Below, in pieces: positions 6,601 through 8,440 of a stretch of DNA of 64,000 bases. A program made the position numbers and the translations under genes. The notes beneath the pieces were generated by a model, which saw only the letters and a list, made by a program, of their open reading frames with translations, was not told the DNA's origin and ran no database searches. Source of the stretch: an uncultured Bacilli bacterium (GTDB lineage Bacteria > Bacillota_I > Bacilli_A > RF39 > UBA660); NCBI GenBank assembly GCA_934085825.1, contig CAKOHR010000004.1, positions 33,308 through 97,307 of the forward strand, written 5' to 3'. The first letter of the stretch is position 1, and every line of letters begins with the position of its first letter.

Positions 6601-6690
6601 AAGATATAATTATATAAATTTATCTAGATTTCGCCAATTTTATCTTACTTTTCCAATTCTTGCCACAGTGTGGCAAGAATTGAGTTTAGT
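6601..6690 (+). pseudogene. Orphan fragment of a DUF1016/YhcG gene (NLSRFRQFYLTFPILATVWQELS)
   Basis: Near-identical at nucleotide level to 7129-7200 inside the intact yhcG-like gene, except that the palindrome arms differ. Confidence 0.5.
6654..6682. repeat. Palindrome a: CAATTCTTGCCAC-AGT-GTGGCAAGAATTG (13-bp arms)
   Basis: Perfect inverted repeat read directly; inside yhcG fragment. Confidence 0.9.
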
Positions 6691-6743
6691 TGATAAAGTA
6701 GTACTACTTGCCTATTTAACTGGTAAAATAGAGTTTCAAATCA

Positions 6744-6760
6744 GTGGCGCAGTGCGCCAC
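6744..6760. repeat. Palindrome b: GTGGCGC-AGT-GCGCCAC, flanked by TTCAA...TTGAA
   Basis: Perfect 7-bp arms with AGT loop; followed by CAATTGAACC. Confidence 0.85.
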
Positions 6761-6805
6761 CAATTGAACCATGTGTTATAATCGTTATTTTACCTTGCAA
6801 TTTTT

Positions 6806-6832
6806 AATAGTTGGCACACTGTGCCAACTATT
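6806..6832. repeat. Palindrome c: AATAGTTGGCAC-ACT-GTGCCAACTATT followed by GAGTTGG
   Basis: Perfect 12-bp arms, ACT loop; right flank identical to that of palindrome d. Confidence 0.9.
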
Positions 6833-6894
6833 GAGTTGGACTAACATTAAAAAAATATTATCAATCAAAAATTAAAATTTAAAAGGAAGAAAAT

Positions 6895-7800
6895 ATGAAT
6901 TATTATGATGAAATTAAAAATTATGTAAAAAAAGCGGAAATAGGAAGAACTATCAGAGAAGCTAACGCTAACAAAGAATTAGTTGATTGCTATTGGAATG
7001 TAGGAAGATTATTAGTGGAAGCCCAAGGTGGTAAAGAAAAAGCAAAATACGGAAATGAACTAATAAAGAAATGGGCAGATACATTATCAAAAGAATACGG
7101 TAAAGGTTATAATTATACAAATTTATCTAGATTTCGCCAATTTTATCTTGCTTTTCCAATTGTGGACACAGTGTGTCCACAATTGAGTTGGTCTATTATA
7201 AGAACACTTTTGCCAATAGTAGATACAAATAAAAGAAATTATTATATTAACTTGTGTATTGAAAACAATTTATCAGTTCGTGAATTAAAACGAGAAATAG
7301 ATAATAACTCGTATGAAAGATTAGAACATAAACCAGATAAGATAGATATAGTTGTTCCAACTAAAGTGCCTAGTATAGCAAATAATTTTAAAAATCCAAT
7401 ATTATTAAAATTAAAAGATAATGAAATAAAAAACGAAAGTGATTTAGAAAAATTAATTTATTCGCAGTTAAGTTATGTATTTTTGCAACTGGGTAATGGG
7501 TTCACATGGGTTGGAAATCAATATAAAATAAGTGATGGAAACAAGAACTATTTTATAGATATGTTACTTTACAACTACGTATATAATTGTTTTGTAGTAG
7601 TTGAAATAAAATGTAGAAAGCTAAAAAAAGAAGATAAGGGTCAAGTTGAGTTTTACATGAATTTAGTTGATAGCTTTGTAAAAGACGCTAGTAACAGCCC
7701 TACTATAGGTATTATCATAACTAAAAACCAAGATAAATTTATAGCCAACTTTGTAAGAAATGAGAAAATAATGCCACTTACTTATGAATTAATAAAATAG
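6895..7800 (+). CDS. yhcG: DUF1016/YhcG-family PD-(D/E)xK nuclease-like protein (intact copy)
   Basis: 301 aa; N-terminal YhcG-like region (NLSRFRQFYLAFP...QLSWS...LSVRELKREI), C-terminal D...EIK nuclease motif (FIDMLLYNY...VVVEIKCRK); RBS AAGGAAG before ATG 6895. Confidence 0.8.
   Translation: MNYYDEIKNYVKKAEIGRTIREANANKELVDCYWNVGRLLVEAQGGKEKAKYGNELIKKWADTLSKEYGKGYNYTNLSRFRQFYLAFPIVDTVCPQLSWSIIRTLLPIVDTNKRNYYINLCIENNLSVRELKREIDNNSYERLEHKPDKIDIVVPTKVPSIANNFKNPILLKLKDNEIKNESDLEKLIYSQLSYVFLQLGNGFTWVGNQYKISDGNKNYFIDMLLYNYVYNCFVVVEIKCRKLKKEDKGQVEFYMNLVDSFVKDASNSPTIGIIITKNQDKFIANFVRNEKIMPLTYELIK
7157..7185. repeat. Palindrome d inside yhcG CDS: CAATTGTGGACAC-AGT-GTGTCCACAATTG (codes PIVDTVCPQL)
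   Basis: Perfect 13-bp arms, AGT loop, followed by AGTTGG. Confidence 0.9.
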
Positions 7801-7812
7801 AGTTTCAAATCA

Positions 7813-7829
7813 GTGGCGCAGTGTGCCAC
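7813..7829. repeat. Palindrome e: GTGGCGC-AGT-GTGCCAC (one G-T mismatch)
   Basis: Copy of palindrome b in the spacer after yhcG; same TTCAAATCA / CAATTGAACC flanks. Confidence 0.8.
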
Positions 7830-7872
7830 CAATTGAACCATGTGTTATAACAGTTTTTTTACCTATTTTTTT

Positions 7873-7899
7873 AATAGTTGGCCTAGTGGGCCATTTATT
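7873..7899. repeat. Palindrome f (degenerate): AATAGTTGGCC-TAGTG-GGCCATTTATT
   Basis: Copy of palindrome c context; TGGCC/GGCCA arms retained. Confidence 0.6.
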
Positions 7900-7950
7900 G
7901 AACTGGTCAAATATTTACAACAAAAAAATGATAGATTTAGGGGGATAATT

Positions 7951-8440
7951 ATGAATTATTATGATGAAATTAAAAATTATGTAAAAAAAGTAGAAATAAG
8001 AAGAGCTATCAAAGAAGCAAATGCTAATAATGAAATAGTGAACTCATATTGGAATATTGGAAAACTTATAGTTGACGCTCAAGGGGAAAATGAAAAAACA
8101 AATATAATAACTCGTTACTAAAAAAAATGGGCAGAAAAGCTAACAAAGGAATATGGTAAGGTGTATAATTATACAAACCTATCAAGATTTCGCCAATTTT
8201 ATCTTGCTTTTGCAATTATTGCCCCACTGGGGCAACAATTAAGTCGGACAATAATTAGAACCATTTTACCTATAAAAGATGAGAACAAAAGAAATTATTA
8301 TATAAATTTATGTTTAGAAAGCACCTTATCAAAAAAAGAAATAAAAAGCAATTCATATGGACGGAATTAAAACTTAGAGAACTAAGAAGTAAGATAAAGC
8401 TCAAGTAGAATTTTATATAAACTTAATTGATAATTATAAG
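7951..8440 (+). pseudogene. Decayed second copy of the yhcG/DUF1016 gene (frameshifts, stops, internal deletion)
   Basis: MNYYDEIKNYVKKVEIRRAIKEANANNEIVNSYWNIGKL... then stop; homolog continues in other frames (YNYTNLSRFRQFYLAFAIIAPLGQQLS..., later DKAQVEFYINLIDNY...); ~95 codons of the middle missing. Confidence 0.65.
8214..8240. repeat. Palindrome g inside yhcG pseudogene: AATTATTGCCCC-ACT-GGGGCAACAATT (one mismatch)
   Basis: Same codon position as palindrome d, different arm sequence, complementarity retained. Confidence 0.85.

Follow-up and report, generated by a model that had tools for sequence, protein, structure and literature searches.

Why do the two arms of a short palindrome stay complementary while their sequence changes? 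A locus in an uncultured Bacilli bacterium (GTDB lineage RF39, UBA660) raises this question. In a 64,000-nucleotide stretch of contig CAKOHR010000004.1 (positions 33,308 to 97,307; assembly GCA_934085825.1), which we call the window, three tandem copies of a gene for a DUF1016/YhcG family nuclease, one of them intact, are accompanied by seven short palindromes. A first-pass annotation, made from the letters alone, had pointed out that the stems of these palindromes differ and yet are complementary, and our scan of the window and a repeat search both bear this out. It also knew of no described feature of DUF1016 genes that would explain them. Our searches of the full-text literature on DUF1016, yhcG, COG4804, and PF06250 likewise found no description of a palindrome, hairpin, or inverted repeat of this sort, and we found no description of a yhcG palindrome in published surveys of inverted repeats in Escherichia coli.

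We propose, with moderate confidence, that the palindrome is a DNA element inherited with the gene family, that its arms are kept complementary mainly by intrastrand template switching, and that it is a local hotspot for duplication, deletion, and recombination. If this is correct, then the covarying stems, the three tandem gene copies, and the four relic hairpins of the window would all result from a template-switching palindrome that is also prone to rearrangement.

Covariation and spread across the DUF1016/YhcG family

In the intact gene of the window, the axis of the palindrome (pal4 in Table 1) is the first base of codon 93, six codons ahead of Trp99. This register sets the third codon positions of one arm against second positions in the opposite arm, and first positions against each other. 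For 74 genes, we kept the protein fixed and redrew the codons from each gene's own usage. The genes have 9.7 of 12 pairs and a run of 5.9 pairs, as compared to 5.3 of 12 and 0.6 expected from this synonymous resampling. For the window gene, none of 5000 draws matched the observed run of 14 pairs. Because the synonymous sites are tuned to pairing with the protein held fixed, the constraint is at the nucleotide level, and a protein-level cause of the palindrome is ruled out.

For a broader view of the helix, we assembled 127 distinct 35-nt sites, each with a 13-pair helix. Across these sites, 84.6% of positions are paired, as compared to 57.4% in shuffles and 30–37% with slid partners. Cells that changed on both sides number 430, versus 147 in shuffles. 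The seven inner pairs are 92–100% paired, with 3–6 pair types each. So, the covariation that had been proposed from the window alone is real and highly significant, and it reflects a constraint on the nucleic acid rather than on the protein. The codons at the axis are restricted as well: the centre codon is GTG or CTG in 116 of the 127 sites and always NTG, with NCA or NCG ahead of it in every case and NCC or NCT in none.

The encoded peptide is highly variable (IVDTVCPQL, IVAPLGQQL, QTVSGK, DAVRRE, and EKPSHL, among others). In an AlphaFold model of the protein (pLDDT, the predicted local distance difference test, of 89.6), the peptide forms the loop between helices 74–86 and 99–105. It is thus predicted to be a variable surface loop that tolerates in-frame multiplication.

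To see how widespread the palindrome is, we collected 80 loci from GTDB genomes, with 83.6 kb of DUF1016 genes. These represent Bacillota, Bacteroidota, Cyanobacteria, Planctomycetota, Spirochaetota, Pseudomonadota, and other phyla, as well as metagenome-assembled genomes (MAGs) of Diapherotrites and Woesearchaeota. The loci were found with alignment A2; a 50-sequence alignment (A1) had no stretch conserved enough for this search. At most of the 80 loci, the top palindrome of the whole gene has its axis six codons ahead of the LSWSH Trp, on the first base of that codon. Odd palindromes with at least 7 perfect pairs occur 71 times in the 83.6 kb, and 54 of these are at that one codon site. The palindrome is also found in high-GC plasmid genes of Actinobacteria, in a distant "PWGH" subfamily on plasmids, and in many viral contigs. 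In members with an indel before the Trp, it is kept in a shifted register, even as an even palindrome (such as ATTGTGAACACG|CGTGTTCACAAT). The first-pass annotation had raised the concern that the palindromes might be confined to this locus, as an artefact of local duplication. Instead, the palindrome is present in almost all orthologous genes, those of E. coli and of archaeal MAGs among them, and it is a trait of the whole DUF1016/YhcG family.

Among close relatives, an 82%-identical protein is encoded at another chromosomal locus, between secG and rnr. At the same codons, its gene carries CAATTGTTGCCCC-ACT/GCT-GGGGCAACAATTG, a perfect palindrome, and hairpins are absent from its flanks. The organism of the window is an uncultured gut bacterium of low GC content; the contigs come from human-gut assemblies, and one close protein is named Candidatus Onthocola.

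In many family members, the unit is repeated in tandem and in frame, with every repeat being a DNA palindrome. E. coli has three units, the family representative P0163 has three units that are 36 nt apart, and P0206 has at least seven hairpins in 60-nt repeats. The in-frame repeats of the P0206 gene (L274, 501–1880) also hold a second kind of hairpin, TAAAGACA-NNN-TGTCTTTA, which encodes SKDxMSL, is centred on another codon position, and occurs in alternation with the usual unit.

Several features of the sites suggest that the palindrome acts as DNA. The inner stem has fewer G.U pairs (12) than mismatches of other kinds (26), and A.C (15) and G.T (10) are about equal, which favours neither strand. 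We considered strand asymmetry of wobble pairs as a signal of RNA, but the raw excess of A.C is confounded by codon structure, and there is no RNA or strand signal in the inner stem. L1 is a purine in all 127 sites and R1 is T in 120, so complementarity reaches the position next to the axis, where the bases L1 and R1 could not pair in a hairpin. The central C-R-N-T-G is nearly invariant, with a C-G closing pair in 120/127 sites, and the axis base is G in 67 sites and C in 55. Finally, a search of window positions 6300–8600 against Rfam (E ≤ 10) gave chance-level hits alone, far below the gathering scores. Because G.U pairs are few, there is no strand bias, the symmetry extends through L1-R1, and Rfam has no match, we favour a palindrome that acts at the DNA level, and RNA structure is disfavoured. 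The same points weigh against the earlier suggestion of a structured RNA module.

The locus in the window

We scanned the full window for palindromes with a 3-nt loop and arms of at least 6 nt with at least 3 G/C. This identified five perfect palindromes at 6654–8235 (pal1, pal2, pal3, pal4, and pal7; Table 1). The rest of the 64 kb contains just three 6-nt palindromes and one AT-rich terminator (6400–6438). All seven palindromes of the locus have AGT or ACT as the loop and a CAATTG-like flank on each side, and they have five different stems. When folded as single-stranded DNA, the four best palindromes reach −10 to −13.7 kcal/mol (z of −4.3 to −7.2, with 0 of 200 shuffles as good), and the decayed ones have z of −2.3 to −3.1. 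The first-pass annotation had extended the last stem beyond TTGCCCC/GGGGCAA; those seven pairs are palindromic, but the eighth is an A.C mismatch.

Table 1. Palindromes, gene copies, and spacers at the DUF1016/YhcG locus (window coordinates)
Feature	Position	Strand	Arm-loop-arm	Description
pal1	6654–6682		CAATTCTTGCCAC-AGT-GTGGCAAGAATTG	perfect 13-nt arms; encodes ILATVWQEL at the family's codon site; in gene remnant
pal2	6744–6760		GTGGCGC-AGT-GCGCCAC	perfect 7-nt arms and an outer imperfect helix; in spacer A
pal3	6806–6832		AATAGTTGGCAC-ACT-GTGCCAACTATT	perfect 12-nt arms; in spacer A
pal4	7157–7185		CAATTGTGGACAC-AGT-GTGTCCACAATTG	perfect 13-nt arms; within the intact gene; encodes IVDTVCPQL (residues 89–97)
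pal5	7813–7829		GTGGCGC-AGT-GTGCCAC	imperfect copy of pal2 with one G.T; in spacer B
pal6	7873–7899		AATAGTTGGCCT-AGT-GGGCCATTTATT	imperfect copy of pal3; in spacer B
pal7	8213–8241		CAATTATTGCCCC-ACT-GGGGCAACAATTA	perfect 7-nt core at 8219–8235 (TTGCCCC-ACT-GGGGCAA); two outer-arm mismatches; in pseudogene
Gene copy 1 remnant	6542–6731 (start approximate)	+		residues ~50–99 including pal1, joined by an internal deletion to the last ~13 codons and the stop
Spacer A	6732–6894	+		163 nt; two short relics of other DUF1016 alleles; pal2 and pal3; ends at the intact gene's ribosome-binding site
Intact DUF1016/YhcG gene	6895–7800	+		301 aa; DUF1016_N and YhcG_C PD-(D/E)XK nuclease domain
Spacer B	7801–7951	+		151 nt; duplicate of spacer A (repeats D5 and D3)
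Pseudogene copy 3	7952–~8440	+		stops and frameshifts (broken open reading frames); "IIAPLGQQL" allele type; repeats D1 and D2

The three gene copies are in tandem, as indicated by direct repeats with a period of 1056–1069 nt and by tblastn. The copy 1 remnant matches the intact gene through direct repeats D4 and D6 and by a tblastn match to query residues 72–98. Pseudogene copy 3 has 76% DNA identity to the intact gene, and its tblastn match covers query residues 1–142 at 65%. As had been claimed for the intact gene, the pseudogene, and the fragment, one palindrome is at the same codon position of each: tblastn places pal1, pal4, and pal7 at query residue ~93 of their respective copies. Intact relatives have the perfect version of pal7, with CAATTGTTGCCCC and GGGGCAACAATTG as the arms around ACT or GCT.

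The spacers turn out to be longer than the ~120 bp that had been reported (Table 1), and the four palindromes within them are not a separate kind. Five of the seven palindromes belong to one 53-nt repeat family (D3), and pal2 and pal5 form their own direct-repeat pair (D5), with the same flank pattern as the other five. Spacer B is 94% identical to spacer A over the pal2/pal5 part and 75% identical over the pal3/pal6 part. Compared with pal3, one pair of pal6 has changed with compensation (A-T to C-G), its loop centre is flipped (C to G), and three of its pairs are not Watson-Crick. Translated in frame, the pal2/pal5 stretch gives FQISGAVRHQLNH, which resembles FPICGAVRHELSWTH from the family representative P0133, and 6779–6868 gives RYFTLQFLIVGTLCQLLSWTNIKKILSIKN followed by a stop codon, which resembles RKLYLTFQKGGTLSHQLTWSHYQKLLSIKN from P0122. 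The hairpins of the spacers are therefore remnants of other DUF1016 alleles at this codon site, and all seven palindromes represent one site of one gene family in varying states of decay.

The genes nearby are efp, rpmG, and one for an M3-peptidase-like protein (5341–6423). Just after the last of these lies a perfect AT-rich hairpin of 18 bp with a T tract (6400–6438), an ordinary intrinsic terminator that is unlike the G+C-cored hairpins of the DUF1016 genes. Scanning for promoters and terminators was uninformative in DNA this rich in AT. A terminator consensus flags just pal1 and pal6, both weakly, and pal2 and pal5 lack a T tract. Also, a good sigma-70-like match (TTGGCG-17-TATAAT, 10/12) is on the minus strand of all three gene copies (6609–6637, 7112–7140, and 8168–8196), just 5' of the palindrome and directed away from it. 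This antisense match may be incidental in AT-rich coding DNA. Farther away, a minus-strand gene at 3281–5227 encodes a protein of 648 aa that is rich in Ser, Thr, and Asn, has a hydrophobic N-terminal segment, and has no recorded Pfam hit. The length of this protein varies from 523 to 654 aa across strains (L179–L185), and the nearby sortase gene is missing in L179.

Proposed template switching, instability, and competing explanations

A clear sign of arm-to-arm conversion comes from two loci. L152 differs from L121 at one place only, to the right of the palindrome, where 4 nt stand in for 9 nt; this results in perfect arms of 20 nt and breaks the reading frame. The change is a textbook quasipalindrome template switch. 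Long perfect arms, of 15–21 nt, are also found in non-coding copies (L104, L112, L130, L131, and L064). Sequence comparison indicates that the upstream copy in L064 is the right arm and flank of the gene's unit, made palindromic. Palindrome-generating template switching was one of the explanations offered for the window, and L152 and the arm-lengthened non-coding copies support it directly.

Other comparisons show how fast the stems change. The identity of the 19-nt core is 0.82, 0.73, and 0.62 at flank identities of 0.91, 0.82, and 0.75, so the stems diverge faster than their flanks. Identical stems are seen with either AGT or ACT, and the near-identical L121 and L124 differ in this way (AGT versus ACT) in one extragenic hairpin. 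Fragments and pseudogenes have 10.8 of 12 palindrome pairs and intact genes have 10.6 of 12, although this classification is noisy, as many of the fragments are contig ends. The equal intactness of the palindromes argues against selection tied to the integrity of the gene.

Extragenic units are common beside DUF1016 genes, both in the gut clade and in other phyla, and where checked they are gene relics. For example, an identical unit is extragenic in L116, L121, and L152 but in the gene in L124, and the extragenic one is a 46-nt relic of an L124-type gene. In some relatives, units with an A tract, a hairpin, and a T tract follow the stop codon and resemble bidirectional terminators. In L036, L056, and L064, which are from other phyla, the extragenic hairpins have the same stem as the gene and bracket it (8–93 nt upstream and 20 nt downstream), while in the window every copy has a different stem. 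These shared stems could be due to recent copying, concerted evolution, or a shared binding partner. We also considered cassette switching, with the extragenic hairpins as silent donors, but this is unsupported: no pair of genes with at least 93% flank identity differs in the stem.

The palindromes are associated with rearrangements. Strains with identical EF-P differ at the window locus. In L184 and L187, the copy 1 sequence continues as a gene, and 96% homology to the window stops 4 nt past pal1, at window position 6686. In L185, everything at the locus is pseudogenised. The contigs with identical EF-P thus provide allelic states of the locus but no clean empty site.

E. coli yhcG, whose region we found in 3962 of 5426 complete genomes, shows similar instability. 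In K-12, three tandem palindromes are at the equivalent place (nucleotides 303–329, 338–372, and 378–410 of the coding sequence, with arms of 12, 16, and 15 nt) and encode IHQTMSGEL, IPQTPSAEF, and IWQTLSAKS. The O157 gene has a single, perfect unit; units 2 and 3 correspond to an in-frame indel of 78 nt. In B strains, yhcG is truncated inside the right arm of palindrome 3; in an O6:H16 strain, the end of an IS1 abuts the left edge of the core of palindrome 3; and in another strain, a deletion fuses unit 1's left arm with unit 2's right arm. In these variants and in the window at 6686, the breakpoints fall at the palindromes.

Some other observations concern yhcG in E. coli. In B-type strains (such as C2566; L270, 700–900), a small gene for a 101-aa "transposase" follows the end of yhcG. 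K-12 has CCC AGG (Pro-Arg; L012, ~13245–13262) where O157 and avian pathogenic E. coli (APEC) O78 have CCC TGG (Pro-Trp; L269 and L273), so the laboratory strain has lost the family's conserved Trp. Also, two derived G>A changes spoil the palindrome of K-12's unit 1. K-12 may be a poor model allele. An antisense RNA (G0-10703) is reported to overlap the 5' untranslated region of the yhcG mRNA (PMC7967276), and a yhcG deletion reportedly causes synthetic lethality with dnaB, dnaN, and parE hypomorphs (PMC2672614).

The window protein matches DUF1016_N (PF17761; 126.1 bits, cut-off 32.8) and YhcG_C (PF06250; 114.1 bits, cut-off 32.5). In alignment A1, the residues expected of a PD-(D/E)XK core are conserved, D222 without exception and E181, E198, and K239 nearly so. 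A sequence search found no homologue in the PDB, while the structure model matches the nuclease domains of NucS/EndoMS, Shedu, and Can2. Structural hits of the N-terminal domain to ParB-like DNA-binding proteins were weak, and we did not rely on them. Fold recognition in earlier work related the YhcG family to the Holliday-junction resolvases of archaea (PMC1189080). In PADLOC, the family is entered as a candidate defence system (PDC-S02), and DUF1016/YhcG is common in type I restriction-modification operons, integrative and conjugative elements, plasmids, and phages. On plasmids (L172 and L177, which are IncHI1B/IncP plasmids, and L174, L178, and L275), the DUF1016 gene often has a 4-nt overlap with the stop codon of the upstream gene, which encodes an integrase, a recombinase, HsdM, or a methyltransferase. 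This suggests translational coupling within mobile or restriction-modification operons. A junction- or mismatch-type nuclease whose own gene could form a four-way structure would be a suggestive combination.

We infer that arm-to-arm conversion is the main force that maintains the palindrome. A mutation in one arm would be followed by template switching on the folded-back strand, during replication or repair, which would either revert the change or copy it to the other arm. This would yield compensated stems, flipped loop centres, and longer arms where coding permits. The ability to fold back would also make the site a hotspot for in-frame duplication of the unit, deletions, tandem duplication of the gene, and breakpoints. 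Several points weigh against this explanation. L152 is the sole clear template-switch event that we caught, and it is from a metagenome assembly, though its flanks rejoin normal sequence. The compared sequences share ancestry, so our counts are not of independent events. A few homologues apparently lack the palindrome, such as the one from Calothrix (L174), which has no odd or even palindrome scoring at least 7 across the whole gene. Arm conversion alone does not explain why just the DUF1016 family keeps such a palindrome, why the C-G closing pair (120/127) and the purine at L1 are nearly invariant, or why pal5, pal6, and pal7 have decayed. Also, folding of the palindrome in vivo, and its binding or cutting by YhcG, are putative.

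These points lead to the question of function. Near-universal retention, the invariant centre, and the lack of anything comparable in neighbouring genes argue for selection, while equal preservation in pseudogenes and the growth of arms in non-coding copies argue for pure drive. The extreme form of the latter is a self-perpetuating by-product: a chance palindrome in a tolerant loop of an ancestral DUF1016 gene would have been kept by template switching, and the rest would be collateral instability. All of the evidence for template switching and drive (L152, arm growth, the fast divergence of stems, and apparent flips of the loop centre) fits this account, as do the palindromes in pseudogenes and fragments and the variable loop. 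Maintenance without selection is quantitatively possible, because published rates of quasipalindrome correction in E. coli exceed the per-site mutation rate. Template switching is also known to homogenise the arms of inverted repeats and to invert their spacers (PMC8604942, PMC8794818). But a by-product would not be expected to persist across phyla and domains despite its cost to coding freedom, or to have a nearly invariant closing pair and loop purine; no other gene in the window has anything comparable; the open reading frames of E. coli are reported to have comparatively few long inverted repeats (PMC6060812); and the decaying copies that we list as non-coding (pal5, pal6, and pal7) show that drive is not absolute. 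We consider a functionless by-product to be possible but somewhat unlikely. It seems rather unlikely that the palindrome, besides being converted, is selected as a cis-acting hairpin or cruciform site for a junction-resolvase-like nuclease, such as for self-regulation or self-recognition. By analogy to Holliday-junction resolvases or NucS, the palindrome could even be the hairpin or cruciform substrate of the nuclease that its own gene encodes, which would enable self-regulation, diversification of the surface loop, or self-propagation. Amplification might then proceed by a nuclease-induced break followed by gene conversion or tandem duplication. We think that this is unlikely, but if true, this would be a self-referential selfish or self-diversifying defence gene of an undescribed kind.

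The other explanations give the palindrome a more familiar role. If it were a hairpin in the mRNA, with a regulatory or processing role (such as a site for RNase III or a translational pause), then the extragenic copies would be elements of untranslated regions or terminators. The copies within genes are all transcribed, many extragenic copies are within a few tens of nt past a stop codon, the stems are stable, and some copies are flanked by A and T tracts like bidirectional terminators (such as AAAAAGGTGGGCC-ACT-GGCCCACCTTTTT in L093 and L094). In contrast, the pairing data (few G.U, no strand bias, and complementarity at L1-R1, which a hairpin could not use) do not look like RNA, the palindromes persist and lengthen in untranslated relics and pseudogenes, Rfam has no match, and the spacer hairpins of the window lack T tracts, so we consider an mRNA hairpin to be quite improbable. 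A double-stranded operator, or dyad site for a dimeric DNA-binding protein (perhaps the N-terminal domain of YhcG, with the site embedded like parS in parB/spo0J), would account for the perfect dyad symmetry through the centre, for the conserved C-R-N-T-G, and for the same-stem copies upstream of the start and/or after the stop in L036, L056, and L064. However, the half-sites vary widely between close relatives, with five stems at the window locus alone, and one protein could not read all of these by sequence. The resemblance to ParB is weak, and most genes have no upstream copy. An operator is very unlikely. Least probable, to the point that we give it little weight, is a miniature mobile palindromic element, similar to Rickettsia palindromic elements, repetitive extragenic palindromes (REP), or miniature inverted-repeat transposable elements, that inserts in frame into DUF1016 genes and beside them. 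Extragenic copies and in-frame multiples do exist, and the Rickettsia elements, as cited in PMC4316617, are a precedent for coding palindromes. But every lineage has the same fixed codon register, the window has no copies outside this locus, the extragenic copies carry DUF1016 coding flanks and hence are gene relics, and no transposase is associated. A mobile hairpin had been among the early suggestions for the window, and the lack of dispersal in the window, the fixed register, and the coding flanks speak against it.

Significance and known systems

DUF1016/YhcG is a very large and uncharacterised family of nucleases (13,262 cluster representatives at 50% identity from our search alone). Its palindrome is a clear case of a nucleic-acid constraint that overrides coding freedom across a whole family. 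It may be the first handle on the target of the nuclease, or else a natural demonstration that a palindrome can last through very long spans of evolution by conversion between its arms. Because the loop evolves under the rules of DNA symmetry, this region will mislead protein alignments, dN/dS, and hidden Markov models. The palindrome also generates pseudogenes and polymorphism in the number of units, and the natural one-unit and three-unit alleles of E. coli yhcG make it directly testable.

None of the known systems compared below is a register-fixed, covarying palindrome that is conserved across a protein family. Rickettsia palindromic elements (Ogata 2000, 2002, as cited in PMC4316617), the classic palindromes of protein-coding genes, are also in-frame palindromic DNA that encodes a tolerated surface segment. 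Those elements are dispersed mobile repeats of ~100–150 bp in many unrelated genes of one genus, while the DUF1016 palindrome is 17–35 bp, has a compensating stem, and is at one homologous site of one family, undispersed. The coding palindromes in the mitochondria of Nematomorpha (PMC6649704) are likewise perfect inverted repeats within protein genes, with both arms coding, but they reach 284 bp and are in many genes of a few mitochondrial genomes, rather than at a conserved site of one family.

REP sequences and bacterial interspersed mosaic elements, with their REP-associated tyrosine transposases (RAYT), and integron attC sites are also short hairpins that are clustered by genes and whose structure is kept more than their sequence; attC sites have conserved ends and variable stems. 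In contrast, the DUF1016 units have no Y1 transposase or integrase nearby, are not dispersed through the 64 kb of the window, lack any sign of extrahelical bases, and have their main copy within a gene. At the window locus, we found no recombinase, and the arms are perfect without bulges, unlike at integron attC sites. There is also no RAYT transposase among the neighbours of the locus, and the relic units have gene-derived flanks.

Some cis-acting sites are inside the gene for the protein that uses them, such as parS in spo0J/parB, the origin hairpin of pT181 in repC, and the origin of phiX174 in gene A. Like the DUF1016 palindrome, these are palindromic or hairpin DNA within the gene of a DNA-acting protein, which links the site to the gene. 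In those systems, the sequence is conserved and the interaction of the protein with the site has been demonstrated; in DUF1016 genes, it is just the symmetry and the central C-R-N-T-G that are conserved, and an interaction with the protein is putative.

Other close parallels are the quasipalindromes that are hotspots for template switching in E. coli (PMC7202029) and the homogenisation of inverted-repeat arms, with inversion of the spacer, in studies of yeast and of RNA hairpins (PMC8604942, PMC8794818). As in L152, imperfect arms are made perfect, and these systems share with the DUF1016 site the compensated changes of multiple nucleotides and the expansion of arms where it is tolerated; their flipped loop centres have a probable counterpart in the mix of AGT and ACT at DUF1016 sites. 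But they are sporadic hotspots or lineage-specific events, while the DUF1016 site is at one codon register of a nuclease gene, across the whole family and in two domains of life.

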